Origin: an uncultured virus (IMG/VR IMGVR_UViG_3300045999_007835)
Lineage: Duplodnaviria; Heunggongvirae; Uroviricota; Caudoviricetes
DNA: 64,000 nucleotides
Virus record (IMG/VR): IMGVR_UViG_3300045999_007835
Reading direction: 5' to 3' (one strand)
Made by a program: the position numbers and the translations under genes. Below are positions 4,912 to 57,839 of this stretch, in pieces. Numbering within the stretch: position 1 is the first letter of the stretch; every line of letters begins with the position of its first letter. The notes beneath the pieces were generated by a model. That model searched no databases. It saw only the letters and a list, made by a program, of their open reading frames with translations, and was not told the DNA's origin.

Positions 4912-6089
4912 TCAGTGCTCTTGACCGTGTACGCCGTGCGCACGTTGCCATCATGGGCAACATCGAGTGGTGCGAGTACGGGCCCCTCCTCGCGTTCGGC
5001 AAGACCACCATCACCGATGACATCCCCACCGCTGCGACCGACGGCGTGGACAAGCTGTACAACCCGGAGTTCATCGACACGCTGAGCGATGCCGAGCTTC
5101 GCTTCGTTGTGCTGCATGAGGCGACGCACATTGCCTACCAGCATATGTACACATGGCGGGCGCTGAGCGAGGAGAACGCGATGCTTGCCAACGTGGCGAT
5201 GGACTACTTCGTTAACACGGCGCTCGTCGATACCGACAACGGCAGGAACTTCATCACCATGCCCAAGATCGGCATCCCGCCCGAGCCCAAGTACCGGGGC
5301 TGGACTGTCAAACGGATCTACGAGGACCTCAAGCAGAACGGCAAGGGTGGGGGCGGTGGGGTCAAGTCGTTCGATGTGCACCTGCAGCCTCAGCAGGGCA
5401 GTGGGGCGGGCAGTGCCGAGGATGCAGCCAAGGTCGCCGAGGTTGCCAACGAGATCGAGCGGCTCGTGCGTCAGGGTCAGATCGTCAAGGATCAGCGGCA
5501 GCGCATGGCAGGCACGGGCTCGAGTAACTCTGCGGGTGTGTTCGGCGACATCCTCAACCCCCGTGCTGACTGGCGCAAGGTGCTGCGTGAGTTCATGACC
5601 GAGACCTGCACGGCTCGCGATGAGCCCTCGTGGCGCCGGCCCAACCGACGCTACATGCATGAGGACGTCTATCTGCCTTCGCTCGATGGCGAGGCGATGG
5701 GTGAGCTTGTGATCGGGTTCGACACCTCGGGCTCGTGCTTTGGCACCGACCACATGTCTCGCGTGGTGAGCGAGCTGCAGTCCATCGTCGCAGAGGTCAA
5801 GCCCACGCGCATCGTCGTTGCGTACTGGGACACCAAGGTCGTGGCCTCGCAGGTGTTCGAGTCTGGCACGTTCGACGTGACAGGCGTGAAGCCAGTAGGC
5901 GGCGGGGGTACGGAGGGTGCCTGCCTGTTCGACTGGCTGCGCAAGGAGCGCATCAACCCGCAAGCCATCGTTCAGTTCACCGATGGATGCTTCTCTGACT
6001 GGGGCCGCAGCGCATGGCCCACGATCTGGGCGGTCACCGACAAGGATACGACCGCACCGTATGGCACAACCGTTCACGTGGAGGTTTGA
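4908..6089 (+). CDS. Metallopeptidase (HExxH) plus VWA-like domain protein (DUF2201-type)
   Basis: PTAATDG, VLHEATH, DTSGS MIDAS, GGGGT, FTDG. Confidence 0.9.
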   Translation: MISALDRVRRAHVAIMGNIEWCEYGPLLAFGKTTITDDIPTAATDGVDKLYNPEFIDTLSDAELRFVVLHEATHIAYQHMYTWRALSEENAMLANVAMDYFVNTALVDTDNGRNFITMPKIGIPPEPKYRGWTVKRIYEDLKQNGKGGGGGVKSFDVHLQPQQGSGAGSAEDAAKVAEVANEIERLVRQGQIVKDQRQRMAGTGSSNSAGVFGDILNPRADWRKVLREFMTETCTARDEPSWRRPNRRYMHEDVYLPSLDGEAMGELVIGFDTSGSCFGTDHMSRVVSELQSIVAEVKPTRIVVAYWDTKVVASQVFESGTFDVTGVKPVGGGGTEGACLFDWLRKERINPQAIVQFTDGCFSDWGRSAWPTIWAVTDKDTTAPYGTTVHVEV

Positions 6090-6090
6090 C

Positions 6091-6360
6091 ATGACTGAGT
6101 TCACCCCCGGCCCGCGCTTCATGGTCAGCCTGCAGGACGGCATCCTGCTGACCGCCGATCAGCTCGAGCAGCTCACTCGCATCCTGCGGCACACCGAGCG
6201 CCTCAACACCAAGTACGTCGGCAAATCTGTTGAGGGCGCGAAGGATGGTTACATCAAGGAACTTGTCGATACGCAAATAAATGACTCAATGACGTTGCGC
6301 ATCCTGCCGGAAGAGGACTATACTGCGTATAGGTTCCTCGCCGCGAATGCGTCGGACTGA
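6091..6360 (+). CDS. Hypothetical protein
   Basis: GGAGG RBS. Confidence 0.7.
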   Translation: MTEFTPGPRFMVSLQDGILLTADQLEQLTRILRHTERLNTKYVGKSVEGAKDGYIKELVDTQINDSMTLRILPEEDYTAYRFLAANASD

Positions 6361-6409
6361 TCTAACTATTAGAAACACAGTAACACCCACACTTCATCAG
6401 GAGCTAACC

Positions 6410-7315
6410 ATGAGCACCAACGCCCTTGCAGGTATCGCCCGTTCGTCCCTTCTCGTCGACCTCACGATTAGCACGTACTCAGGTCGCATCCAAGACCGCG
6501 CCACCCGTGACGAGGTCACTGCACGTAAGGGTGCAGGGTCCAAGCGCGCGGCTAGCGTGTACAAGTCGCTCTTCGCTGACTGCCCCGAGCTCGACGCCAT
6601 CACGTCGTTCCAAGGCAAGCTGCGCATCGATCACTACCGCCTCACCAAGCCGTGGTCCGACAGCGGGCTGCGCCTCGTTCCGTACTCGCTCCTCGAGCGC
6701 CACCGTGACCTGATGTACGACGCCGAGCGTGAGTTCTGGAAGCTCGTCGAGGCTTTCCTCGACAAGTTCGAGACGCTGGTTGCAGCTGCTGCGTTCAAGC
6801 TCGGTGCGCTCTTCGATCGCAGTGAGTACCCTACCCGTGAGCAGGTGCGTCGCAAGTTCGGGTTCTACCTGACGTACACGCCGTTGCCCAAGGCAGGCGA
6901 CTTCCGTATCGACATCGAGAACGAAGTGCAGCGCGATCTCATCAAGCAGTTCGACGATGCGATGGTCGAGCGCGAGCGCGTGCTGATGAAGGACTCGTGG
7001 GACCGCCTGCACTCCTCACTCAGTCGGTTCGTTCGCCAGCTCGCACCGCGCGAAGGCAAGCGTGCCCGCATCTTCGACTCGATGATCGGCGATGCTCGTG
7101 ACCTCTGCGATCTGCTCGCTCACTTCAACGTGAACGGTGACCCGGCGCTCGAGCGTGCTCGCAAGCAGCTCGAGGACATGATCGAAGGCGTAACGACTGA
7201 TGCACTACGTACCGAGGAGGACACACGTGCCGCGATCCACAACCAAGCCAAAGCAATCCTTGACGCCTACGAGTGGGGCATGGGCGAAGACACCGAGCTT
7301 GCCGATGCCGCTTGA
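6410..7315 (+). CDS. DUF3150-like protein
   Basis: T.PW.DSG.RL, LG.LF.R.EYP, GDFR.D motifs; usual neighbour of AAA/VWA genes; AGGAG RBS. Confidence 0.65.
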   Translation: MSTNALAGIARSSLLVDLTISTYSGRIQDRATRDEVTARKGAGSKRAASVYKSLFADCPELDAITSFQGKLRIDHYRLTKPWSDSGLRLVPYSLLERHRDLMYDAEREFWKLVEAFLDKFETLVAAAAFKLGALFDRSEYPTREQVRRKFGFYLTYTPLPKAGDFRIDIENEVQRDLIKQFDDAMVERERVLMKDSWDRLHSSLSRFVRQLAPREGKRARIFDSMIGDARDLCDLLAHFNVNGDPALERARKQLEDMIEGVTTDALRTEEDTRAAIHNQAKAILDAYEWGMGEDTELADAA

Positions 7316-7637
7316 GAACCTGCGCTCGTACTCAGAGCAGCTCACCTTGCCGGGTAACCGGCGCATCCGCGCCGGCCCCACTGAGATCGAGTTCCGCTAC
7401 CAAGACAACGGCCTCGAGTTTCACCTGACCGCCTTCTACGAAAACGTAGAGGCGCGGTCCATAGGCTCGGTGTACGAACGTCCGCAGTGGCTAACCGATA
7501 TCGTGACCGTGGGTAAGGTAGGCGGGCACCAGTGGGTGCTTGACCGCCGAGACCCGATGACCGTTCTCTGGTTCATTACCGATTCGCAGTACAACCTGAC
7601 GCAGTTCATTTCAAAAGAAGGAGTTGATCATGCCTAG
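7305..7637 (+). CDS. Hypothetical protein
   Basis: Fills the operon gap; protein-like composition. Confidence 0.6.
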   Translation: MPLENLRSYSEQLTLPGNRRIRAGPTEIEFRYQDNGLEFHLTAFYENVEARSIGSVYERPQWLTDIVTVGKVGGHQWVLDRRDPMTVLWFITDSQYNLTQFISKEGVDHA

Positions 7638-8013
7638 ACGACTGATGAGTAAATCCGCCAAGATCCGCCGAGCGCTTAGCCGCAATCTGTCGCCAGCGTA
7701 TATCGCTGAGCGTTACCAGACTTCGCTCAGTACGGTGTACAACATCAAGTCGCAGATGAAGCGTAAGGCTTCCCTCGAGCAGCCAACGACTATCATCGCT
7801 TCTCCGGAGCCCACCGCGCCGATGGTGGTCGCACCCCTCACGACTGCGCCAGTGGCAGTGCCTGCTGGCGGCATTATCACGCTGAGCGACCCCGCCCCCG
7901 TCCCCCCGGGGGGTATCACCTACGTGGCGCCTACCGCTACACCCACGGCAGTCGTCGAGGAGCGGCCCAACTTGTGGGCGCGGTTCAAGCTCTGGATGTT
8001 CGGTGTGAAATGA
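7630..8013 (+). CDS. N-terminal HTH-like protein with Pro-rich tail
   Basis: SPAYIAERYQTSLSTVYNIK; AGGAG RBS. Confidence 0.65.
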   Translation: MPRRLMSKSAKIRRALSRNLSPAYIAERYQTSLSTVYNIKSQMKRKASLEQPTTIIASPEPTAPMVVAPLTTAPVAVPAGGIITLSDPAPVPPGGITYVAPTATPTAVVEERPNLWARFKLWMFGVK

Positions 8014-21204: not shown

Positions 21205-21415
21205 GCTGCGGTTCATCTATATCTACGGGATAAATTACTACATCCCGTGGGAGGCAATGCCCCCGGGCAGCTCTGTGTTCCTGAAGACGACCGCTGATGC
21301 GGCAGAGATCAAGAGCCAGCTTGCCCGGGCCAACAACTACTTCGGCTGCCAGTTCGTTGCGCACAACCGCTGTGAGTACGGCTATTACGGCATCCGAATC
21401 TGGCGGCTACGTTAG
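21143..21415 (+). CDS. Conserved hypothetical protein (start uncertain)
   Basis: IPW..M.PG.SVF...E.G.YGIRIWR; last gene of the + arm. Confidence 0.65.
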   Translation: MMLMLSRPLVPARAITPLPDELRFIYIYGINYYIPWEAMPPGSSVFLKTTADAAEIKSQLARANNYFGCQFVAHNRCEYGYYGIRIWRLR

Positions 21416-24400
21416 AGCTTCAAGTAGTTGCGCACGTCCCGAGTCCATTCAAACATCTGCTGCTCGTAGCGCTTGATCTCTTCCATCTGCTGCGCCCGTT
21501 CTTTCTGGGTCAAGGATTGCGCGGCGTCAGAGCTACTCAGCCAGTTGCGATAGGCACGGGTCCGCTCGATCTCTTTGAGCGTGCTGTTGACAGCCTTGTA
21601 GAGCATGAGCTTGTCGGCGTTCTTCTCGGCAAAGTCCGCAGCGCGACCAAGATCCTCTTTCATCAAGCTGTTCAGCGTGTTCTGTGTCTGCACAACCTTC
21701 TCGCGAAGATCGTAGAACTCGCCTGCGCGGCGCGTTCCCACCGGGTCATACGTGAACGCAGTCAGCCCCACCATCTGATGCAGGGGGCGGTCAATCCGAT
21801 CCGGGTTCAGCATAGCGTCCGTTGTTGCGAACAGAAGCCCTGCCGTCGTGCCAAGATACCCTTGCAGGAAGTTGTCAATCTTGATTGGTGAGACTTGAAA
21901 GCCGGTCGTATCCGCAGTGAAGCGTGCGATGTTCTTTGACAACTCAGAGGTGCGAGACGTCGTACGTTCGCTGGGTAGCAGTCCAGCTTGGTAGGTACCC
22001 TCAAGCGCCCGACCGCTAAGGAACGAGTAGTTGGTTATGTTCTCGAGGAGCGGCTTGAAAGACGCCGGCATGTAGCCGCGTCCAGAGTACTCATCGAACG
22101 CTGCCTTGAACCACGAGATGACGGCCTCGGCAGCAACAGCTTCGTCCGGTGTGCCCTGCTTGCGCATGGCTTCCAGCACGCGCTCGGGCAGCGCTTTGAA
22201 GATCAGGCCCAGTTCGCCCGGTACGGGGATGCCAAAGCCGTCGCCGATGACCCACGTCTTGTCCCGCTCACGCAGGTCCATGTTCTCGTATTCTTCGTCG
22301 CCGGCTTTTGCGAGCGAGTAGAGGACTGCCACTGAAGTGGCATAGGCAGCTGCCGTATAGAACTGCTTGAGCGCCGCACCGCGCTCCTGCCCTGAGGGGG
22401 CGTCCTTACCCGTGAGACTGCGATACAGCACATCCATACCTTGGATGTATGCGTTGTAGAAGGGGATCACCTGCGTCAGCATGTGCACGATGCCAAGCTG
22501 ATCGCCCATGCCGTACCGACGGAAATTGATGATCTCCCGCGCCCGGTGAAGCGCCAGTAGCTGGTCGCCGCCTTCGTAGAGAGTCTGCTCGTAGATCGCA
22601 CGGCGCAGCGCGAAGTCAGAGGCCCGAGCAATGTCGCTCATGCGATACACAAACTCACCCACTGCCCCGCCTCGGCGGGGTTTGACGCCCATACTCCGCA
22701 GGAACGAATCAGCAGCCTCGTCCGTACGGAAGTCGAAGTCGCCTACGACGCCGTACTCACCAAGCTCGTGCGTGATCTGTGGCAGCTTGCCCAACACTGC
22801 TGCTTTGGAATACTCCGTGAAGTTCGTAAGCGTCCGTGCAGTCAGCATGGCGGCGTCTTTGACGCCCGAGTACATGATCGCGCGCTGGATATCCTGTGGG
22901 ATCTGCGTTGCCGTAAAAGTCGGCACCGCCGTGATGGCCGTGCGCAGCACCTGCGAGAACTGGCTCATCACATTAAAGAGCGGTGGCAAGGGTGCGATCT
23001 GGATATTAAACGCAGCAGCGTGGTACGCAGAGGGCGTCTCGAAGTAGACTTCGTTGCCCTTGGAGTACGCCTTTACTACGCGCTGCTTGTTGTTGGAGTT
23101 AACCTGTGCGGCACCGCCCGGCAGGAACCGAGCTTGCCCGACCTTCTCTAACGCGCGCAGTGTACGGATGGTGGCATCGGTCTGCACGACCTGACGCGCA
23201 CTCCAGCCCAGCCAGTTGAAGTAGTTGTCGAGTGCGTTCTTAACGGGCCGATCAATCAGCGGTGCATCCACAAGCTGGGGGTTAGCCTTGCCCACCTGCG
23301 CGATACCGCGCCCCAGCCTCCGGCCTGACCGGAAGTAGGAGTCGATGTCATTTACGCCTTCGCGGTCGAACGGGATGTAGGCAGTAGCGGTCTTCCAATC
23401 GTCGGCCATCTCTTGCGGGATGCGCCCCACCTTCACCATGTTGTCGATTGCGTCGAAGCGCGCATCGTCAAGGATTTTCCGCAGGGTGCGGTGGAACGTT
23501 GGGTCAGACGAGTAGATCCCGTAGTACTTGTTGATGTCGGCATCCGACATTGAGACAGGGAACTCGCGGCCCTTAGCCATTGAAGCGTTGAGGTCCTTGA
23601 ACTCTTTCTGCCGCGCGGACTCCATGATCTTGCCCGCTTCGTCGTACGCCTTTTGGAACGACATGTTCTGCGACTTGGCCCACGTCTCAATGACGCTCAG
23701 CACATCTGCCGGCGGACGCAGATTGGGCTTTGCAACAGCACGCCAGAGGCCCGTGGCCTTGTCCTTGGCAAGTGAACCCAAGCGCAGATATGCAGGGATC
23801 AGCTGGTCGGACGCTTCAGCTTGGCGGTACAGAGGCTCTAGGCTGGCCCGTCCCAGCGCGTTGCGCACGGCACCGTTGAAGTTCTTGGAGATTGCCTCAA
23901 GCGCAGTGGCACCCTTGTCTGCGATGCGCGTACGAAACTTCGTGACGAAGTCGGTGGCGGTTTGGGCCATCTGCAGGCTGGGGCCGCCCGCTGGAAATGC
24001 TCCGTCGTAGGCCGCAGTTTCGGCTACTGTGGCTGGGGCTTCTGGGACTGCCGCTCCTGATGGCGCAGCTTGGCTAGGAATTCCGGCAGGGACGCGGACC
24101 GGTCTAGCACGTTTAGCGCCCTGCCCAGCGCCGCCGGGTACGCTGGGTCGCCCTCCTCTTGGTCCGCCAGCAGTTTCCATTGCGACACGAGGGCCTTCAT
24201 CTCGGGCTTGCTCGTAGCTAGAGTCTTTGAAGCGGTTTCCAATAGGCTCGAAATTTCCATCGGTAAATTCCTTTGCAAGGAAATCAAAGATGTCTTTGTT
24301 GTCCTTGATGTGTTTGACAAAGTACTTCTTCAGCGCAAACATGTCAAACGCATCAGAGGTCTCGAGTAAGGTCATTACCTTCTGCATTTCTGACGCAAAG

Positions 24401-27400
24401 TCGGCCCCATGATTTCGCTCTTTGAAATGCGCTAACTCGTGCTGCATGGTCCCTAGCATAGAGACCGCAATCTCAGCCGGGTTCCCGCGAAGCTTGGCGT
24501 ACGACGGGTTGATGAACATACCCTTGAACGGCACGCGGATGTTGACGCCGACGTACTCCCGGTCGAGGCTTACACCAATACCCTCGTCATCCAGCGATGC
24601 ATAGTCAGAAGACGCCCGTGCAAGTGCGTCTCGCAGCCGCTTAAACGTTTCGCCTACCCCGTAGAAGTATTGGTTAACGCGCTTCGCCCCAAACTGATCA
24701 ACTGCTGCTGCGTAAAGCGTTTTCCCGGTATCGGGATTCTGCATGTTGTTGTGCAGAATGACCTTGTTGGGATCGATAGAGCTTTGAGGGATCGTAAGCG
24801 CATTTATATCAATACTAGCGTTTTTGAGGTCGTCCTTTGTGATCTCTGGCGTCGCCTTGCCGTTGATGTAGAGGACGCCGTCTTTTACCTCAACCTTATC
24901 TTTTGGGTTGATCTTGGGCAGGGTCGCAGTGGTAGCGGGTATTTCAGGTCGAATGTCTTCTTCCGCTGTGGTTGTCCCATTTTCGTTGATATATTGGATT
25001 AGCCCAAACCCCGTGCTTTCATCAGTCAACTGCTCTTGCCCGTATAGCACAGTGAGATAGCGCTGGATCTGCTCCATATCTTTCTCCGCCGAGGGGCTAA
25101 ATCTTTGGCGGTTAAGATCAAATGGATATCCGGGGTGTTCAGGGGGCACCGATGCGGAGACATCTAGATAAATTTGCCGCCGCATAGCCGTACGGGTAGC
25201 AGGATCTTCTAAACGCTGACTAAACTGCCATAGCCCATTAGATGAAACATAAAGATTTCTCCAAATGTATTCGTCTTTTGGTATTGGGTTTGACACGTAT
25301 ATCCGCGCTGTACCCCATGCAAACTTTACATTTGCAAGGGGGGTGTATTTATCTATCGGAAAATTTGCCCCAATAGGCTGTGTATCCGAATGATTGGCAT
25401 ACCGTAAATCCTGAGTAGTGACTTCTACATTTGCAAACAAAGGACTACGCAGTAATGAATCATCTTCCTCAAGCTGATAAGTGGTAAATTTAATAGGTAG
25501 CGTGTCGCCCGTACTTTCGTCTACGTAGGTCTCAGGGATGGTTACCGTAACGCTTGTGCCGTGCCCATCTGGGAACAGCGTATTGGTAGCTTGTTCAATC
25601 TCAATAGGATTATTTGTAACTTCAATTGTCGGTGGCGGGACCGTACCATCAAGCGCAGAAAAGAGGTCCGGACCAGTGGTTGTCATTTGTGCAAGCCGCC
25701 CGTCCCTCAGCGATACAACCTCCAGTTGTTTATTCCCAAACAAGAATTGCATTTTGGCGATGCCAAAGCCCCCGGACGCACGTTCCGTACCCTTCTTTGT
25801 ACCTGCTATTTCCAAGAATTCTTTGCCCATTACGGAAGCGGGCATACCGGCACCGTTGTCGATAATTTGGATCGTACGCTTTTCTTGGTTGTACCGAATT
25901 TGAATCCGCCCTTTCGGAATATCGCCAGACTCCAACGCTTCTTTGACCGCGTCAAAGGCATTCTGGAACAGCTCTTTCTGCGTCACAGCAGGCATCGTTT
26001 CCGGGCTGCCGTACAGCTTCGGGCCAAGGAGTTTGGCAAGGCGCGCCGTATTGGCCCCTACTTTAGCTTCGACTGTTTCCAGAGAACGAAGCGGAGACCC
26101 ACGATTAATCTCATCATCCTGCGCAATACGCAAAGCTGTCTCTGGAGTTAGGTCCCCCGCACGGTTCAGCCGGCGAGTTTTCTGTTTGGACTCTGTGGAT
26201 AGCGAGCCGTATTCCGGCAGTTCATCAATTTTGCGGCGTATGCTTGTCCACTGTTGCGCAGCTTCAAGATCTTCTTGCAGTTCACGTTCCGAGCGCTCAT
26301 CGCGAGGAGGCGGAGGTTTAGGAGCAGGCGGCTCAGCGGGCGTAGGCGGCGTAGGCGGCGTAGGCGCTGCTGCTCGCGTACGCCGAGCTGGTTTAACCGC
26401 AGGTGCGGGAGCAGTGGGCGGAGTAGGCGCAGGTGCGGTGGCGGGAGCCGCCGTGAAGTCGAGGTCTAGTTGACCCGATGGCGCCGCCGGTTCTCCAGTT
26501 CGCGGTGCAGCAGGTATCCCACGGCCTCCCAGTCCTCCGGGCTGAGCCGCTTGAGGTTGGGTGGGAGCACCGGCAGGAACGGCTGGTTGTGCAGCTCGTC
26601 CAGAAACTTCCACGCCTGCCCCAGTTCCTCCAAAGTCAAGTTCTGGTTGGACGGGAGCTGCAGGTACATTGGTTTGTGGAACGGAGACGGTTGCACGGGG
26701 CTTCTCCTCAAATGCGGGCGGCGTCGGCTCTGGCGCAAGAATCTGTTGGATCGCTCGCGCTCTCAGCCCCGTACCTTCAGTAAGGCTGGGGTCTCTCGAC
26801 ACCATAGCACGGAGGTCATTCGGCGTCTTGCCGATGACATTGTCTCGGAACCAGCTACGCACAGCGCGTTGCTGATTGCTGCCGCCTTCTACAGGAATGC
26901 CCGACGCAGTGAGATCCTCCAGCCGGATCTCATCACCAAATCGAAGATCAAGCTGCCCTTCGGCAGTGGGAGCACGTTGTGTAGCCTGCGTCGGCAAAGC
27001 GCGTCGGTCCCGCTGAATATCCTCTTGCAGCGCGGCAAGCGAGGGCGCGAGACGTTCGGCTTCGGCGCGAATCCTCATCGTCTCCCGCACTCGTTGCACA
27101 CGATCTTCTAAGGCCGATGCACGTTCATACTCCGCTTTGAGGCGTTCATTCTCACGCTGCAGCGTATCGAACTCTCGGCGCTTGGCTTGCAGGTCAGCAG
27201 TGCGCTCGGCCTCTTCTGCACGGGCCTCGGTGTCAATCCGGGGTTCTTGTGCGATCGACGGAATCGTCGGCGCGTAGCGGGCCATCTCGCCCGAGACATT
27301 TGCAATCTGCTCGGTCACGGCTACAGACTGTTTGCGAAGCTGTTCCTGCACCGCAGGATCGGAGGTCTGGCTGGCCTGAGCACGGAGCGTCTCTTGCTCG

Positions 27401-28647
27401 CGCGTCAGTTGCGTGAGCTGATTGTTCAGCGCGTCGTAGTACGCCTTGTTCTGTGCAAGCCCCTCAGGCGTCGGAGCACGGGGCGCTTCAGCCTCGGTGA
27501 ACAGTTCGCCTTGCGTACCCGCAGGCGCGCTGGGCTCGAGGGTGGGGCCGCCTGTTGGTTGCGCAGGGGGTGGGGGTGGCGGAGGAGTAACTTGCGGCGC
27601 AGGGCGCGCCGGTCCACGCTGAATGGCACCGACTCCAGCACCAAGACCAAGGCCCGCAGCGGCAGCACGACCAGCAGCTTCGCCCACACCGGCAGAGATC
27701 GGCTGGTCAGGAATAGCTTCCCGCAGCGCCACGTTCTGCGTGGCACGCCCACCACCCTCTTCAATCGCTTCACTGGGCGCTTCTTTGAGGCCACCTGCGA
27801 TACCGGCACCGACCCGGCCCAGCACACGACGCTGGCCGGTGATGATTGCTTCTTCAAGCGCAGACGCGCCGGGCAGGCTCTGAGCAAGATAAGAGATGAT
27901 GGCCCCCGAGGCACCAGCTGCCCGGGCTGCGTTTAGTGTGCGCTTGGCGGCCTCCGGCTCATCGAGCCCCTGCCGGCGGAACTCATCGAAGAGCTGCTTG
28001 TACGACTCGGCACCGACCTCCGCACCTTGCTGGACCGCCCCGACACCCTTTGCGGTTCCTACGCCGGCAGTGGCCCCCGCTGCACGCGCTGCGGCAGCTT
28101 CAGCCCCCTTGGCAAGGGCTCGCTGTGTTGTGGTACGCGCAACCGCTGCGCCGAGACCAAGCGCCGGAAGCATTGCAGGGATAGACTCTACAACCGCACC
28201 GCCCAACAGGGCTGGATCAGTAACCGTTCCTTTGAGCGCTTCCATGAACGCGGCGCCCTGCCCGCGCTGTTCGGCTTCCTGAATACGTTCAGAGAGCTGC
28301 TCCTCTCGAGCCCGCAGGCCGGGAGACTTCATTTGTTCCGCGCCTCGTTGTGCGCGCTGGCCTAAGCCAAGATTACCAATTGGGCGAAAATCGCCCGTAG
28401 CCAGCCCGTAGAGCTGCCCGGGAAACTTAATGAGAGCGCCAAGTCCAGATAGCGCTTGCGCGCCTACATCGCGGGGTACTTCTCCCCACGTACGCTCTGT
28501 GCTGGCAGGAGTCTTAACGGGGGCAGTGGGCTCAGGTTCTCGCTCTCCTGCTAGGATCTGCAGGCCACGGGTTGATACACGCGACCAGTCATTTGCTGCA
28601 AGTGCCTGCAGGTCTTCCGTCGACAGCAGTGAGAAACGATCAGCCAT
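21412..28647 (-). CDS. Large polyvalent (putative ejected) protein with GHKL ATPase, HExxH peptidase and LPD38-like C-terminus
   Basis: 2411 aa; ELFQNAFDA, DNGAGM, GGFGIAK, QHELAH; C-terminal INF.R.G, IPFYNA.IQG, GIPVP.E.G, SPIKID..LQGY.G. Confidence 0.85.
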   Translation of the reverse strand: MADRFSLLSTEDLQALAANDWSRVSTRGLQILAGEREPEPTAPVKTPASTERTWGEVPRDVGAQALSGLGALIKFPGQLYGLATGDFRPIGNLGLGQRAQRGAEQMKSPGLRAREEQLSERIQEAEQRGQGAAFMEALKGTVTDPALLGGAVVESIPAMLPALGLGAAVARTTTQRALAKGAEAAAARAAGATAGVGTAKGVGAVQQGAEVGAESYKQLFDEFRRQGLDEPEAAKRTLNAARAAGASGAIISYLAQSLPGASALEEAIITGQRRVLGRVGAGIAGGLKEAPSEAIEEGGGRATQNVALREAIPDQPISAGVGEAAGRAAAAGLGLGAGVGAIQRGPARPAPQVTPPPPPPPAQPTGGPTLEPSAPAGTQGELFTEAEAPRAPTPEGLAQNKAYYDALNNQLTQLTREQETLRAQASQTSDPAVQEQLRKQSVAVTEQIANVSGEMARYAPTIPSIAQEPRIDTEARAEEAERTADLQAKRREFDTLQRENERLKAEYERASALEDRVQRVRETMRIRAEAERLAPSLAALQEDIQRDRRALPTQATQRAPTAEGQLDLRFGDEIRLEDLTASGIPVEGGSNQQRAVRSWFRDNVIGKTPNDLRAMVSRDPSLTEGTGLRARAIQQILAPEPTPPAFEEKPRATVSVPQTNVPAAPVQPELDFGGTGAGVEVSGRAAQPAVPAGAPTQPQAAQPGGLGGRGIPAAPRTGEPAAPSGQLDLDFTAAPATAPAPTPPTAPAPAVKPARRTRAAAPTPPTPPTPAEPPAPKPPPPRDERSERELQEDLEAAQQWTSIRRKIDELPEYGSLSTESKQKTRRLNRAGDLTPETALRIAQDDEINRGSPLRSLETVEAKVGANTARLAKLLGPKLYGSPETMPAVTQKELFQNAFDAVKEALESGDIPKGRIQIRYNQEKRTIQIIDNGAGMPASVMGKEFLEIAGTKKGTERASGGFGIAKMQFLFGNKQLEVVSLRDGRLAQMTTTGPDLFSALDGTVPPPTIEVTNNPIEIEQATNTLFPDGHGTSVTVTIPETYVDESTGDTLPIKFTTYQLEEDDSLLRSPLFANVEVTTQDLRYANHSDTQPIGANFPIDKYTPLANVKFAWGTARIYVSNPIPKDEYIWRNLYVSSNGLWQFSQRLEDPATRTAMRRQIYLDVSASVPPEHPGYPFDLNRQRFSPSAEKDMEQIQRYLTVLYGQEQLTDESTGFGLIQYINENGTTTAEEDIRPEIPATTATLPKINPKDKVEVKDGVLYINGKATPEITKDDLKNASIDINALTIPQSSIDPNKVILHNNMQNPDTGKTLYAAAVDQFGAKRVNQYFYGVGETFKRLRDALARASSDYASLDDEGIGVSLDREYVGVNIRVPFKGMFINPSYAKLRGNPAEIAVSMLGTMQHELAHFKERNHGADFASEMQKVMTLLETSDAFDMFALKKYFVKHIKDNKDIFDFLAKEFTDGNFEPIGNRFKDSSYEQARDEGPRVAMETAGGPRGGRPSVPGGAGQGAKRARPVRVPAGIPSQAAPSGAAVPEAPATVAETAAYDGAFPAGGPSLQMAQTATDFVTKFRTRIADKGATALEAISKNFNGAVRNALGRASLEPLYRQAEASDQLIPAYLRLGSLAKDKATGLWRAVAKPNLRPPADVLSVIETWAKSQNMSFQKAYDEAGKIMESARQKEFKDLNASMAKGREFPVSMSDADINKYYGIYSSDPTFHRTLRKILDDARFDAIDNMVKVGRIPQEMADDWKTATAYIPFDREGVNDIDSYFRSGRRLGRGIAQVGKANPQLVDAPLIDRPVKNALDNYFNWLGWSARQVVQTDATIRTLRALEKVGQARFLPGGAAQVNSNNKQRVVKAYSKGNEVYFETPSAYHAAAFNIQIAPLPPLFNVMSQFSQVLRTAITAVPTFTATQIPQDIQRAIMYSGVKDAAMLTARTLTNFTEYSKAAVLGKLPQITHELGEYGVVGDFDFRTDEAADSFLRSMGVKPRRGGAVGEFVYRMSDIARASDFALRRAIYEQTLYEGGDQLLALHRAREIINFRRYGMGDQLGIVHMLTQVIPFYNAYIQGMDVLYRSLTGKDAPSGQERGAALKQFYTAAAYATSVAVLYSLAKAGDEEYENMDLRERDKTWVIGDGFGIPVPGELGLIFKALPERVLEAMRKQGTPDEAVAAEAVISWFKAAFDEYSGRGYMPASFKPLLENITNYSFLSGRALEGTYQAGLLPSERTTSRTSELSKNIARFTADTTGFQVSPIKIDNFLQGYLGTTAGLLFATTDAMLNPDRIDRPLHQMVGLTAFTYDPVGTRRAGEFYDLREKVVQTQNTLNSLMKEDLGRAADFAEKNADKLMLYKAVNSTLKEIERTRAYRNWLSSSDAAQSLTQKERAQQMEEIKRYEQQMFEWTRDVRNYLKL
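24024..24260 (-). CDS. Nested +1-frame gene B (78 aa, MEISSLLETASK...)
   Basis: AAGGA 8 nt before ATG; helical protein-like composition where the host frame is a G/P/A/R linker. Confidence 0.55.
   Translation of the reverse strand: MEISSLLETASKTLATSKPEMKALVSQWKLLADQEEGDPAYPAALGRALNVLDRSASLPEFLAKLRHQERQSQKPQPQ
26466..26696 (-). CDS. Nested +1-frame gene A (76 aa, ...LTLEELGQAWKFLDE...LSPEDWEAVGYLLHRELE...)
   Basis: GAGGAG 7 nt before GTG; amphipathic helices where the host frame is a G/P/A linker. Confidence 0.65.
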   Translation of the reverse strand: MQPSPFHKPMYLQLPSNQNLTLEELGQAWKFLDELHNQPFLPVLPPNLKRLSPEDWEAVGYLLHRELENRRRHRVN

Positions 28648-30503
28648 TATCGACCTCCAGCGCTTTGCCCCAACCGCTCCCTAAGCGCTCGTTGCGCCCG
28701 GCTTTCGACTTCCGCATTAAAGGAGGCCGCGCCCCCACCGGGAGCCCCACCGGGAGCCCCACCGGGGATCGTGCGGTTAAGCGCAGTGTTAACTTGCGCT
28801 AGCAGCGCTTTAGCGGGCCCAGTGAGCGCCGCAAGTTCTTGGTCAACCTGACGTTTATAGTCGTCTACGATCCTACGGTTTTCCGGTTTGGTAGGATCTC
28901 GTAGCGCGTTCGCAATCCGCAGGCCAGCGCCCGGCGTAGTGAGGTATTTATCTTTATCCTCACGGAACTTCCGCTCAGTCTCCGCAATCGCAGCGGTAAG
29001 CCGCGCCTGATGCCCCAGCAGGTTAGAAGTTTCTGCAGGCCCGCGCGCAAGTTCACGCTCAGCTACTGTGGCCGCGTTGTTCGCGGCGCTTACTGCTGCT
29101 TGAAGCTCACTGCCGTACCGGTTCGCGGCCACCGCCGACTCAGTGCCCAGCATCCGTGACGCCGCTTCGAGAGCGCTTGCGTCTCCAAGACGTCGAGCGT
29201 TAGCCAAGTCAGCCAGCCCTCGGCTGCCAGCCATCTGTCCGGGCATCGCGGCTTTGTAGCCTTCCACACCAACTTTGGAGCCCTCACGACGGCCAGTCAG
29301 CGCGCTCTCCATCTGCCTTTCTTCTTCGGTAAGGATCGCATCCTCAGCCTTAGCGCGCGCTGCACGCTGCTGCGCCATGTAGTTCAAGCCAACCTCTGCC
29401 GACGGACCGGCAGCCATGCCCGGGGTCAATCCACGCGAGAACGCAGCCCCCATCCGGAGAAGCTGTTCAATACCCTGCTGCTTCGGGTTGTACTGTTCCT
29501 CGAGCATGGCGCGGCGCCGCGCAAGGCGTGCCTGCTGCTGATCAAGCTCTGCCTTCGTGAGCTGTGGAAACTCCGCACGGAACTGTTCCGCTACCGCCAT
29601 CGGGTCGGTCGCAGCAAGCCGACGAGCTTGAGTCTCTGCATCTACCTGCAGTTGGTTTTCCTGCGGGGTCAATCCTCTCGTGACGGTCGCCTCAAGGGCT
29701 TTACGCAATTCCGGGCTCATTCCGCCCGGCGAGGCCGGGATCGGGAACGCAGGGGGCGCCGGAGCGGCGGGTTCCGCAGGGGGCGGTGCGGGGGGAGGTG
29801 ATACAGCTACGGACGAGCGACGTGCGGGGCCCGCGCCATAATCCGCCTCCGGTACGCTTTCGGGGGGCTCGGCAATCGCAGAACTTTCAGGGATCCCTGT
29901 GGTGCTAAACATTGGACGCGCGGCGCGTGGAGCGGGCGGTGCTGAGTCTGAGATAGGCGACACCGGCGCTTTCTGTGCAGCCTCCAACGCTGTGCGGAAT
30001 TCATCTGGCGACAAACGGGAGAACTGCCTACGCAGTGTCTCGGGCGACGCCCCCCGGCGAAGCAAGTCCTTCATGCGTTTGACGACCGGGTCTTCTACCG
30101 GATCGCCCTCTGCAAAAGCTACGATCCCACCCGCTGCCATCATCTGCGGCTGCGCAGCCGCTTGGGCTCCCGGCGCTGATGCAATCCCTGACTGAAGCAG
30201 CTTCTGAAGATTCTGTTTCTCCGACTGCTGCCTCTGCTGCGCGACTCCGCCCACCTGCTGGGCAACCTGTTGAGTCGTCATGTCAAGGAGTTCTTGCTCG
30301 CGCTGGTCCGCCACCGTCGGCATTTGATTAGTCTGCGGTGCTGCAGCCATCTGCATCGACCGCATCGCCGCCTCTTTCTCCGACTTCAACTGCTGTAAGG
30401 CGAGCAGCTTGATGAGGTCAGGCGGCACGCCCGCGTTCTGTGCAAGCGCCCCCGGGTTTCCCCGGTATGCGTCCATCAAGCGTGTGACTTGTTGGTCAAT
30501 CAT
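28647..30503 (-). CDS. Putative internal virion/ejection protein
   Basis: 618 aa, Q/A-rich helical, MAAGGIVAFAEG motif. Confidence 0.7.
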   Translation of the reverse strand: MIDQQVTRLMDAYRGNPGALAQNAGVPPDLIKLLALQQLKSEKEAAMRSMQMAAAPQTNQMPTVADQREQELLDMTTQQVAQQVGGVAQQRQQSEKQNLQKLLQSGIASAPGAQAAAQPQMMAAGGIVAFAEGDPVEDPVVKRMKDLLRRGASPETLRRQFSRLSPDEFRTALEAAQKAPVSPISDSAPPAPRAARPMFSTTGIPESSAIAEPPESVPEADYGAGPARRSSVAVSPPPAPPPAEPAAPAPPAFPIPASPGGMSPELRKALEATVTRGLTPQENQLQVDAETQARRLAATDPMAVAEQFRAEFPQLTKAELDQQQARLARRRAMLEEQYNPKQQGIEQLLRMGAAFSRGLTPGMAAGPSAEVGLNYMAQQRAARAKAEDAILTEEERQMESALTGRREGSKVGVEGYKAAMPGQMAGSRGLADLANARRLGDASALEAASRMLGTESAVAANRYGSELQAAVSAANNAATVAERELARGPAETSNLLGHQARLTAAIAETERKFREDKDKYLTTPGAGLRIANALRDPTKPENRRIVDDYKRQVDQELAALTGPAKALLAQVNTALNRTIPGGAPGGAPGGGAASFNAEVESRAQRALRERLGQSAGGR

Positions 30504-30514
30504 GGTCTTGGCCC

Positions 30515-31390
30515 TTAATTAGGCGGGAACAGGCTTTCAAAGATTTCTTTTACGGTTGGGTTCTGCAGGAGCGTGCCGAGTTGAGTGGCAATCCCAACTA
30601 ACTGGTTGAAGTCGCTAGGAGCGTTGTACGAGTAGTTCTGCGTTTGGATCGGCAGATCAGCGATCAACTGACGCTGGAACTCCAACTGCTTGTACGGGAA
30701 CTGGCGTTGGGTTTCAAATTCTTTAAGATCAGCGGCAACGCCTTCGGACTCAATGGCCCGCTGAATATCACCACCCTTTAACTGCGCACCCAGTGCAGCT
30801 AGCCCGTACTCACCCGCTTGCTTAGCAGCCCCCATCTCTCGGTTCTGCTCGACGTTAAATTGGTCCATCGCCTTATCGAAAGCGGTCTTGTAGCCTTCGC
30901 CCAGCGTCCTACTAATCTGCCGAAGCGCAGCTTCATTCCCAAGCGATTCCATCACCGCTTGCCGCCCTCCGCCAAACGAACCGGCCCGGGTCATTCGACC
31001 TGCGTCCTGCACGCGCTGAATCGCTGCATTACGGCGAATGTCTTCGATCTGCGGATTAAGCGCCGCAGAGAGATACGGGTTCATGTAGTCCTGCGCAGAC
31101 TGCGCAGTGAACGTCTGTGGGGTGTAGAGCGTCTGAGCACCGGTAGGCAACGTCAGATTCCCAAGCCCTTGGAACGCTTTTGTTTGCAGCTCAGACTGCC
31201 CCGCAGTGAGCGGTCCGCCGTAGACTTGGTAGTCTTCGTCACCTAACGCTTGCGCTCTGCTAAGAAAGTTGGTGACGTAACTTGAAGCCCACGGGGAAAG
31301 CGTGGAGGAGGCCCCTGAGCGCGTGCCGGCTAGGGGGTCAGTGCCCGCTCCCCCGCCGGTAGTTGTAACACCAGAAGATGCAGTCGTCAT
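30515..31390 (-). CDS. Putative DNA transfer/ejection protein
   Basis: YMNPY, GSFGGGRQA, PY.QL motifs typical of podophage internal proteins. Confidence 0.7.
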   Translation of the reverse strand: MTTASSGVTTTGGGAGTDPLAGTRSGASSTLSPWASSYVTNFLSRAQALGDEDYQVYGGPLTAGQSELQTKAFQGLGNLTLPTGAQTLYTPQTFTAQSAQDYMNPYLSAALNPQIEDIRRNAAIQRVQDAGRMTRAGSFGGGRQAVMESLGNEAALRQISRTLGEGYKTAFDKAMDQFNVEQNREMGAAKQAGEYGLAALGAQLKGGDIQRAIESEGVAADLKEFETQRQFPYKQLEFQRQLIADLPIQTQNYSYNAPSDFNQLVGIATQLGTLLQNPTVKEIFESLFPPN

Positions 31391-31391
31391 A

Positions 31392-36869
<5,478 letters not shown>

Positions 36870-56035: not shown

Positions 56036-56064
56036 TTTGTATCAGGTTGTGGGGAGGGTGTCAA
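56036..56064 (-). promoter_or_regulatory. Putative sigma70 promoter
   Basis: TTGACA-17bp-TACAAA on the minus strand. Confidence 0.6.
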
Positions 56065-56791
56065 CATACTTGAAGCTCCACCCCATGCGCCGCCCCTTAG
56101 ACAAAGGCTTTCCGGACTTCAACGCGCGGTTCAACGTAGGCATCAACAGCTCAAGCGACTGCAGGGTCTCAGTCAGACTCCCATAGCGATGCACAACGCC
56201 CTGCGGGTCCGTAGCATCGATCTGCTTGCGCATCTTGAATTTGGCCTCTTCCGTGTGCGTACGGCCCGTCCAGTGGCTGTAATGCCCCGCCGCTGCAGCC
56301 GCCATGATCTTTGCGCGCCCTGCGTCTGAAATTTTGCGCCCCGGGCCTTTGGGTTTGCCACGCTGCGTGTTGCCAATTTTGCCCCGTACTTCTTCGGAAA
56401 GAGTTGTGCCGTACCGGTAGTGGTTGGCGCCAGCGTGCTTACCTTTGCGGCTCGTGCTGATTGCTTTTTTGGTCGCAGCACTTAGTACCTGACCGAGCCG
56501 GGGCGCAAACGCGTCTACGTTGATGTTGTAGCAATCAGGCTGACCAACACATTTCATCAAGTACGTGTTCTCGATATCAAACGTGTGCCGACCCTCCGGC
56601 ACCGTCTCTAAGATCTCAAATACAAACATTTCCGCACCGTACTTGTTCCACGCCGCCTGAAGGCGTGGGTTCTTGTGTTCGTTACGCTTCAATGCGTAAG
56701 TGTGTTGCCAACGTCGCCGCTCAAACGACTCGGCACTGCCGACGTAATAATGATTATTTGCCATGTTGGTGATGCGATAGATGACTGCCAT
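56042..56791 (-). CDS. GIY-YIG homing endonuclease with NUMOD3-like repeats
   Basis: VIYRITN......YVGSA....RRW.H, N..LQ.AWNKYG, HTEEAK.KM; GGAGG RBS. Confidence 0.9.
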   Translation of the reverse strand: MAVIYRITNMANNHYYVGSAESFERRRWQHTYALKRNEHKNPRLQAAWNKYGAEMFVFEILETVPEGRHTFDIENTYLMKCVGQPDCYNINVDAFAPRLGQVLSAATKKAISTSRKGKHAGANHYRYGTTLSEEVRGKIGNTQRGKPKGPGRKISDAGRAKIMAAAAAGHYSHWTGRTHTEEAKFKMRKQIDATDPQGVVHRYGSLTETLQSLELLMPTLNRALKSGKPLSKGRRMGWSFKYVDTLPTT

Positions 56792-56818
56792 TGCGACCTC
56801 CGTGGAGTAATGATCGGT

Positions 56819-56847
56819 ATTATGCCCCGGAAAGTTAAATAGGTCAA
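56819..56847 (-). promoter_or_regulatory. Dedicated promoter for the GIY-YIG gene
   Basis: TTGACC-17bp-CATAAT on the minus strand. Confidence 0.7.
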
Positions 56848-56876
56848 TTCGCGAGCTTTGTACCGCTAATAGGCAC

Positions 56877-56900
56877 AAAAAAGCCCTCCGAAGAGGGCTC
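56877..56900 (-). terminator. Rho-independent terminator after the capsid gene
   Basis: GAGCCCTC-TTCG-GAGGGCTT followed by TTTT. Confidence 0.9.
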
Positions 56901-56927
56901 CAAACACTCGTAAGTGCTTGATTTTGC

Positions 56928-57839
56928 TTAGCTTGCGCCGGGCGAACCGTAGGCGCCGAGCGGGTCCGAGACGCCGAACGAATAGCGTTCGCGGGCCTTG
57001 TACCTAGCGTTCCCAGTGTCGAAGTCCGCATCCATACCCGTCTGCATCGGGGTACGAACGAAGTGCTTCAGACCGTTGGGCACGTCGGTCAAAAGGAACC
57101 AAGCGTTGGTGTCGGTCAGGTAGTGGTTGATCGTGAACCCTTCAGGAATCGAGTTCATCGACTTCAGCGCGTTGACGTCGTTGTCAGCGGTCGCCACACG
57201 GAGTTCAGTCTCCAAGAGGCGGGTTGCAACGAACTGCAACGCTGGAGGAACCACCAGCTTACGCGGCTTGGCGGCGATCAGCAGCCCACGCTCATCGGTC
57301 CAGCCAGCGATCTGGATAACGGCGGCTTCCAAAGAAGTCTCGTTCAGATCGGCAGCGGTTGACGGGCGGTTGCTGTTGGTGCCACCAGAGACCAGCGGAT
57401 GAGCGGTCGAGAACAGGCTAACGCCGTCGCCGTAGGTCACGGCGGAGCTAAAGCCTTGGTTCAGGATCGCAGCCGCTTTGACCTGCTTGGTATACGCCAT
57501 CGCGCGAGCAAGCGCTTTGGTGTACCGCGACGACAGACTGTCGTACAGGTTGTCTTCCATCGCCTCTTCGGTGATGGAGAAGCCCATAGCAATCGTCTCG
57601 TGGTTGTACCGAGCAGTCCAAGCCTCTTGCGCGTTGTCGTACGCCAGAGCAGAGCCCTCGTTCTTGACCGGAGCAGCGCTGAAGCCGGAGAGCTTGGTCT
57701 CCTCTTCAAACGAACGCTCGGAGGTCTCGGTCTCGAAGAGCTCTTTGTGTTCTTCGCCGTACCGTTTGTACTCCAGACCGAACAGTGCGTTAAGCCCGGG
57801 CAGGAGTTCTTTAAGTAGCTGTGCGCGTGAAATAGCCAT
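56928..57839 (-). CDS. Major capsid protein (Mu gpT-like)
   Basis: MAISRAQLLKELLPGLNALFG, DGVSLFSTAHP, YKARERYSFG.SD. Confidence 0.9.
   Translation of the reverse strand: MAISRAQLLKELLPGLNALFGLEYKRYGEEHKELFETETSERSFEEETKLSGFSAAPVKNEGSALAYDNAQEAWTARYNHETIAMGFSITEEAMEDNLYDSLSSRYTKALARAMAYTKQVKAAAILNQGFSSAVTYGDGVSLFSTAHPLVSGGTNSNRPSTAADLNETSLEAAVIQIAGWTDERGLLIAAKPRKLVVPPALQFVATRLLETELRVATADNDVNALKSMNSIPEGFTINHYLTDTNAWFLLTDVPNGLKHFVRTPMQTGMDADFDTGNARYKARERYSFGVSDPLGAYGSPGAS

Follow-up and report, generated by a model that had tools for sequence, protein, structure and literature searches.

Two small genes, here named A and B, are very probably encoded inside, and in the +1 frame of, the gene for a giant polyvalent protein of 2,411 amino acids (aa) of an uncultured virus of the class Caudoviricetes (IMG/VR record IMGVR_UViG_3300045999_007835). 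The stretch of DNA analyzed, hereafter the window, is 64,000 nucleotides (nt) long, and all positions refer to it; the giant gene, whose reading frame is called the outer frame below, occupies 21412..28647 on the minus strand. We consider both nested genes real because relatives keep their starts, ribosome-binding sites (RBSs), and open frames and because selection shifts to the nested frame over them. Sequence comparison further indicated that gene B is tied to an enzymatic module of the giant protein, composed of a GHKL ATPase and a zinc peptidase, and that gene A is not.

Relatives conserve the nested reading frames

Gene A (26466..26696, minus strand) encodes 76 aa from a GTG codon separated by a 7-nt spacer from a Shine-Dalgarno sequence (SD), GAGGAG (26704..26709, minus strand), and codon 10, an ATG, may serve as a second start. 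Gene B (24024..24260, minus strand) encodes a predicted four-helix protein of 78 aa; its ATG start lies 8 nt from the SD AAGGA (24269..24273, minus strand), which overlies Lys-Glu codons of the outer frame. The coordinates, starts, spacers, and +1 frames given for both genes in the original prediction, which was made from the sequence of the window, all proved correct on recheck. They are the sole +1 open reading frames (ORFs) of at least 70 aa with an SD match of at least 5 nt in the giant gene. Among 500 random synonymous recodings of that gene, 25% yielded at least two such ORFs; the +1 frame was open across A in 47% and across B in 67%. Within a single genome, A and B are not beyond chance, and the proof lies in the comparison of relatives.

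To avoid selecting on the nested peptides, we searched viral contigs with the enzymatic module of the outer protein and retained the best 80 of 183 matches, which form 58 clusters at 90% and 39 at 70%; the alignment that seeded the search drew mostly on loci with B, and searches with B had already turned up 15 of the 80 contigs. At 79 of these best 80 loci, an SD-led +1 ORF of 45 aa or longer was present 30 to 110 codons past the HExxH motif of the module, and the +2 frame had none (0/80). At the sole miss (L066), the ORF is present and the SD is absent. The background rate of such +1 ORFs is 185 in 1,753 sequence windows. Start statistics for B were taken from 51 of 58 representatives, 7 being dropped where the motif missed the module start. 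There, B starts 55 to 66 codons past HExxH (exactly 60 in 33 representatives), with ATG in 32 and GTG in 19 and mostly at an SD spacing of 6 to 9 nt; an in-frame stop lies within 5 codons upstream of the start in 41 of the 51. Lys-Glu is written as AAG-GAG at 21 of 26 SD sites of B versus 45 of 826 places elsewhere, counts that come from relatives that are not independent, and we read the SD of B as itself being under selection.

The A and B peptides, when used as queries, each retrieve homologs as themselves, and at those loci always in the +1 frame inside a giant ORF. Conservation of the +1 frame with an RBS, which the original prediction had called for, was found for both genes: a start codon along with an SD of at least 4 nt was present in all 50 copies of A examined, and B has its SD-led ORF at the 79 module loci noted above.

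Selection on the two frames was then compared. The pairs used throughout this test lack independence, and their alignment followed the nested frame, somewhat to its advantage. Among the 37 closest B pairs, differences at the third position of outer codons fell from 0.31 in the peptidase domain to 0.069 inside B, and those at the first position rose from 0.10 to 0.18. Amino acid identity in these pairs was 0.88 in the nested frame, 0.79 in the outer frame, and 0.76 in the unused frame. Across four classes of divergence, identity over B ran through 0.88, 0.69, 0.54, and 0.39 in the nested frame and 0.79, 0.56, 0.37, and 0.26 in the outer frame, which hardly exceeds the unused frame there. For gene A, 68 mid-distance pairs gave identities of 0.63 (nested), 0.45 (outer), and 0.45 (unused). 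The nested frame is more conserved than the outer frame for both genes, in agreement with the frame-specific selection that had been proposed, and the claim that annotation had missed two conserved and selected nested genes is upheld. By these comparisons, the "linker" of the outer protein at A and B is little more than a by-product of the nested gene.

A survey of 374 SD-led nested ORFs from 66 giant genes yielded only two large recurring families, A (49) and B (54), and the remaining ORFs fell into clusters of at most 9. A third recurring +1 ORF of about 35 to 43 aa, rich in K, Q, and P and mostly provided with a strong SD, was seen downstream of A at seven loci (L041, at outer residue 778, L038, L057, L067, L082, L086, and L110) and is absent from the window. 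It may be a third nested gene or the shadow of an acidic motif of the outer protein.

Gene B is exchanged together with the ATPase-peptidase module

The module occupies 24262..26043 (minus strand, outer frame) and consists of an Hsp90-like GHKL ATPase with its transducer, a variable insert, and a WLM/YgjP-like zinc peptidase, whose HExxHxxxxxH motif (24409..24441, minus strand) is predicted to bind zinc. The suggestion that B travels with this cassette was confirmed, since B accompanies it at 80 of the best 80 module loci and was lost together with it in L026. A B profile matches all of these 80 loci, a circular result given that it was built from them, and it independently matches L117 and L133-L135. 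B was found in none of the 10 module-less giant genes (L026, L028, L030-L034, and L125-L127; L027 was excluded as incomplete). A metagenome set of 80 loci comprised 72 short ATPase-only matches and 8 long module matches; of the 8 long ones, 7 have an ORF at the position of B and 1 is cut off. Six classes of C-terminal backbone hold the module plus a B-like ORF, which in L121 was recognized by position only.

Comparison of the window with L026 by blastn gave 97.6% identity over 28647-26449 and 92.4% over 23988-21412 and nothing between, where L026 has an MPTase module instead. The swapped segment (23989..26448, minus strand) starts 17 bases past the stop codon of A and ends 35 bases past that of B. 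The exchangeable cassette comprises the module and all of B and excludes A; in L026 the module and B were replaced together, and A was kept. Exchange is also visible at larger distances: the window shares its backbone with L029 (46-62%), and its module and B are closer to those of another class (49-54% and 50-69%, respectively) than to those of L029 (29% and 27%). Modules of the L029 type, at about 30% identity, have an SD-led ORF at the place of B that is weakly similar to the main B family. The module tree, which is only a quick one, places L029, L114, and L078 on long branches.

The fold model of B has four helices (predicted local distance difference test [pLDDT], 85.6; predicted template modeling score [pTM], 0.67). 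Neither profile nor fold searches gave a significant match to a solved structure; the best fold matches, an export chaperone of the FliS type (E value of 2.3) and a colicin D immunity protein (E value of 4.3), are not significant and were left unused. Searches of Pfam, PHROG, PADLOC, and NCBIfam assigned neither A nor B to a family, and no Cys lipobox or hydrophobic span is visible in either sequence.

The module joins an Hsp90-like ATPase to a candidate zinc peptidase

The fold model of the module (pLDDT, 86.4; pTM, 0.67) shows the GHKL domain and transducer, then a small sheet, and then the HExxHxxxxxH helices. The best solved fold matches of the GHKL-transducer part are Hsp90 and TRAP1, followed by GyrB, MutL, and MORC, and rIIA proteins are also among the matches. 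The ExxxN, DxGxG, GxxGxG, and T motifs of GHKL ATPases, together with the transducer, are invariant in 53 of 53 module sequences, as is the third His of HExxHxxxxxH, which is altered in L120 and L121. Because all 13 checked catalytic-motif residues are invariant in the 53 sequences, the ATPase and peptidase activities are both probably kept.

The peptidase part weakly resembles WLM and YgjP peptidases, proabylysin, and Wss1 (Protein Data Bank E values of 0.017 to 0.5). Weak WLM and YgjP-like matches were obtained in 22 of 30 cases each, and the peptidase of the window stays below both family cut-offs (YgjP-like, 23.3 versus 26 bits; WLM, 14.4 versus 26 bits). We therefore use the WLM/Wss1-type assignment weakly, as a suggestion that the domain may work like these enzymes. 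Proteases of the Wss1 type cleave proteins bound to DNA, and GHKL domains serve as clamps gated by ATP. The giant proteins of the other backbone class (L038-L057 and others) often have both an MPTase and a GHKL-peptidase module, and in proteins with both, a nested follower occurs only after the GHKL-peptidase.

Gene A is a family apart

Family A consists of acidic, Leu-rich, two-helix proteins with invariant A, P, L, and W residues and a C terminus of the form [LVI][HQN], and its profile gathers 396 clusters at 50% identity; ESM Atlas gave no usable match to A. In the original prediction, the two genes flank the module as parts of a single system and each domain may carry a nested partner of its own; neither idea is supported. 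Gene A does not start at the module and lies about 140 residues before it, outside the exchangeable segment, and we conclude that it is not the module's partner because the near-identical L026 swapped module and B yet kept A. It was found at 59 of the best 80 module loci, some of the other 21 being truncated, and it occurs as well in giant genes without a GHKL domain (L026, L028, L030-L034, and L125-L127). Six loci were obtained from two A members on long contigs, three with A nested and three with A free-standing: directly after the giant gene in L122 and between the first two ejection genes in L123 and L124, where it directly follows a homolog of the first. The module and A are not co-transferred as a toxin-immunity pair would be, and MPTase modules show no recurring nested ORF. 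Most simply, A would be an accessory gene of the ejection-protein operon that was absorbed into the linker, the direction of this move being unproven; it could guard an N-terminal or C-terminal part that the ejection proteins share.

Two partners for A within the outer protein were considered and rejected. Masking of QLxLF-like motifs fails in that most A-bearing giant proteins have no such motifs, and pairing with the small helical domain that precedes A fails in that this domain is present in just 5 of them.

The C terminus of A offers a lead only. It resembles the Lon degron x-L/I-L/I/V-H (PMC11986505) and the C-terminal end of the Lon activator LarA (PMC10665427) in being the conserved hydrophobic-His end of a small helical protein. 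It differs in that Q and N ends are common in A. Position -2 is L, V, or I in 146 of the 150 best A matches, and the final residue is H in 100 of the 150, a set in which the profile favors such ends, and in 34 of 50 locus copies. Against an engagement of Lon stand the third of copies that end in Q or N, including the copy in the window, which ends in VN, and the residue at -3, which is mostly P or S and not L or I.

In a river RNA run (X18), two short contigs over window positions 26417-26798 cover gene A and not B, a coverage that does not speak to expression. One of them departs from the window just past A, like the L026 swap point.

A model for the nested genes and its alternatives

With roughly even confidence, we favor a reading in which A and B are independent small genes, B being linked to the cassette and likely inhibiting the module in the producing cell and A likely being a short-lived helper of the ejection proteins. 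In our best reading, B would be a built-in inhibitor or chaperone of the module. As in a toxin-immunity pair, the small gene lies directly downstream of the module and is co-transferred with it, with L118 as an exception. The giant protein would be packaged and then injected into a new host, where the module would act as an ATP-gated clamp that feeds a Wss1/WLM-like protease, the targets most likely being host (defense) proteins that sit on the entering DNA or close to it. In late infection, the same mRNA would also yield B, which would bind the module and keep the protease quiet, guarding the phage's own replication and packaging proteins, and would be left behind when the giant protein is packaged. 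Nesting would allow an effector and its guard, as a unit of two genes, to insert into the middle of a polyprotein gene with the frame unbroken.

Gene A, for its part, would have entered the linker as a captured gene. Its [LVI][HQN] end would likely engage Lon, and A might then be a short-lived chaperone, or else a decoy for Lon, that shields the unfolded ejection proteins up to packaging, a proposal that we hold tentatively and at less than even confidence. A bolder generalization, which we regard as possible and rather unlikely, is that an injected, undescribed ATP-driven clamp-protease strips host defense proteins from the incoming DNA with its antidote encoded inside the same gene and that, gene A being both free-standing and nested, the "disordered linkers" in giant virion proteins represent small genes that were captured, a general route by which polyproteins would absorb effector-guard units of two genes.

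Several observations weigh against B as a dedicated guard of the module. Physical linkage by itself would make the two co-inherited. Similarity of the L029-type B to the main family is weak (phmmer E values of 5e-4 to 0.012), and the B58 profile misses it. In the chlamydial genome L118, an intact module stands alone and B is absent, and because of this B is, as far as sequence comparison can tell, not an obligatory subunit of the module. L120 (1918-2094) and L121 (7706-7951) have an open, helical-looking +1 ORF with no SD and no profile match, next to distant modules in which the third zinc ligand is altered. These three are among the five genome matches to the module; L119 is interrupted by Ns. 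Finally, the C terminus of B is not degron-like, so that release of the module would have to come from packaging and not from turnover.

In L118, the stand-alone protein (5686-7806) consists of the module and an N-terminal extension and lies between ftsH-like and aspS-like genes, labels that were given by eye. Similar stand-alone module proteins are P0172, P0174, and P0175, one of them named from Chlamydiales. The chlamydial module looks like a bacterial capture of a phage module.

Among the alternatives, the one that survives best, though we find it distinctly less probable than inhibition, makes B a positive partner of the module, such as an activator, a substrate adaptor, a co-chaperone, or a chaperone for its folding, and B might then be packaged as well. 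A positive partner would show the same strict co-occurrence and would need no degron-like end, and Hsp90-like ATPases work with co-chaperones; however, the chlamydial module stands alone without B, and a module that enters the host ready-made would require the presence of B in the head. It is unlikely that B is instead an independent small effector, for instance an anti-defense protein, that hitch-hikes through its overlap with the cassette end. Linkage alone would explain the correlation between B and module distances (Mantel rho, 0.79), and gene A demonstrates that independent genes do enter these linkers, but B was not seen without the module (0 of 10 module-less giant genes) and persists even where module identity drops to about 30%, whereas A moves freely.

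We think it very improbable that B is no separate protein and instead forms the C terminus of a shortened module-B product, arising when ribosomes shift into the +1 frame as they leave the peptidase domain. B does begin right at the last helix of the module, and SD-like sites can stimulate frameshifting; yet all 51 representatives have an ATG or GTG start, mostly with an SD spacing of 6 to 9 nt, and 41 have the upstream stop described above. That A and B are both antidotes of the domains that they flank, as first proposed, is hardly credible as a whole: it fits the pattern of B and is contradicted for A as partner of the GHKL module, since A is retained when the module is replaced, stands free in two other positions, and has no adjoining window segment common to all of its hosts, and MPTase modules are without a recurring nested ORF.

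Genomic setting of the giant gene

The window is nearly all of a single-contig phage genome of 66,334 bases, and it is found mainly in lake-water metagenomes. Its minus-strand late genes run in the order of portal, tail genes, a DNA-ejection-protein-like gene, a 618-aa gene, and the 2,411-aa gene, which ends the late operon and is met head to head by the replication genes. Matches to portal, tail, and ejection proteins lie upstream on the same strand as the giant gene. The two genes directly upstream (30515-31390 and 28647-30503, minus strand) likely encode ejection proteins 1 and 2; the first resembles PHROG 4287, DNA ejection protein (E value of 2e-4), and blastp gives a match at L124 6713-7984 (E value of 2e-8). 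The giant protein is likely the third and largest ejection protein. Between 20800 and 29000, no sigma-70 promoter-like site was found, and terminator-like sites were fewer than in shuffled sequences.

The giant protein has a large multidomain architecture with unrelated enzymatic and LPD domains and modules swapped between relatives, as polyvalent proteins do. Residues 100-542 resemble PHROG 2206, the N-terminal part of virion RNA polymerase, and the Pfam matches are LPD38 (PF18857, residues 2117-2284, E value of 1e-26; 21796..22299, minus strand), HATPase_c_3, and YgjP-like. In the INPHARED set, no cultured phage matches the module or A, and distant matches (9 records) are limited to the C-terminal part of the giant protein.

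Repeated QGELF, QPELDF, and QLDLDF motifs occur in the giant protein (27513-27499, 26649-26632, and 26472-26455, minus strand) and resemble the sliding-clamp binding motif. Such QLxLF-like motifs are present in the backbone class of the window and in L031 and L034 and are rare in the other class. Elsewhere in the window, a GIY-YIG/NUMOD3 homing endonuclease gene (56042-57031) lies amid late genes, and a 387-aa gene (31392-32555) opens with three nearly identical acidic repeats and, over the 90 residues at its C terminus, is 63% identical to a gene at the same position in L124.

Relation to known systems

The Rz1 gene of phage lambda reportedly lies wholly inside Rz in the +1 frame with its own start, and its product is said to work with the outer product. 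A and B are likewise small, wholly embedded, in the +1 frame, and equipped with their own starts. They differ in that they are not lysis genes and show no visible membrane anchor or lipoprotein signal, that the outer frame over them is a floppy linker of a 2,400-aa protein, and that B is exchanged with one domain and A is also free-standing. In polymorphic toxin-immunity cassettes, an exchangeable enzyme is followed by a small dedicated gene and the two move as a unit. The module and B are alike in this; here, however, the enzyme is internal and not C-terminal, and the putative partner is nested in an ORF that continues. B matched no known immunity family in Pfam, PHROG, or structure profile and fold searches.

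The polyvalent proteins of Iyer et al. (2017; PMC5512222) likewise combine a giant late-gene protein, LPD38, exchangeable enzymatic domains, and an HExxH peptidase with presumed injection, and LPD38 is listed in that work as phage type only. The MPTase described there has Glu as the third ligand, in contrast to the HExxHxxxxxH of the window. The main text of the paper contains no occurrence of GHKL, HSP90, WLM, or overlapping and describes no nested genes; its supplement may list the domain. T4 rIIA-like and other GHKL conflict ATPases (PMC7824862) also have an N-terminal GHKL ATPase, a variable C-terminal domain, and a role in phage-host conflict. Their match to the module is limited to the ATPase part, at 9-16% identity, and the ATPase of the window is fused to a WLM-like peptidase in a virion protein. 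Overlapping alternate-frame insertion (OAFI; bioRxiv 10.1101/2024.11.07.622342) is engineered and synthetic, and gene A looks like a natural case of it. In the literature covered, which took in few subscription papers, neither genes nested in polyvalent or ejection proteins nor the module nor the A and B families are reported. Nested genes are known, as are effector-immunity cassettes; what appears new is their combination within a virion polyprotein, with one gene found both free and nested.

Implications

These results bring to light two sizeable unannotated families hidden from gene callers, A with 396 clusters at 50% and B with at least 39 module clusters at 70%, as well as an undescribed phage enzyme module, and they serve as a warning that a G/A/P/R-rich linker in a giant phage protein can be the shadow cast by another gene. 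They also provide a natural experiment by which B, a true partner within the cassette, can be told apart from A, a bystander. Since gene A is free-standing and nested in the same operon, the origin of overlapping genes by capture becomes directly testable. If B is an inhibitor, it would explain how phages make injected enzymes without harming themselves, and it would offer a ready means of cloning and assaying effectors of this kind.

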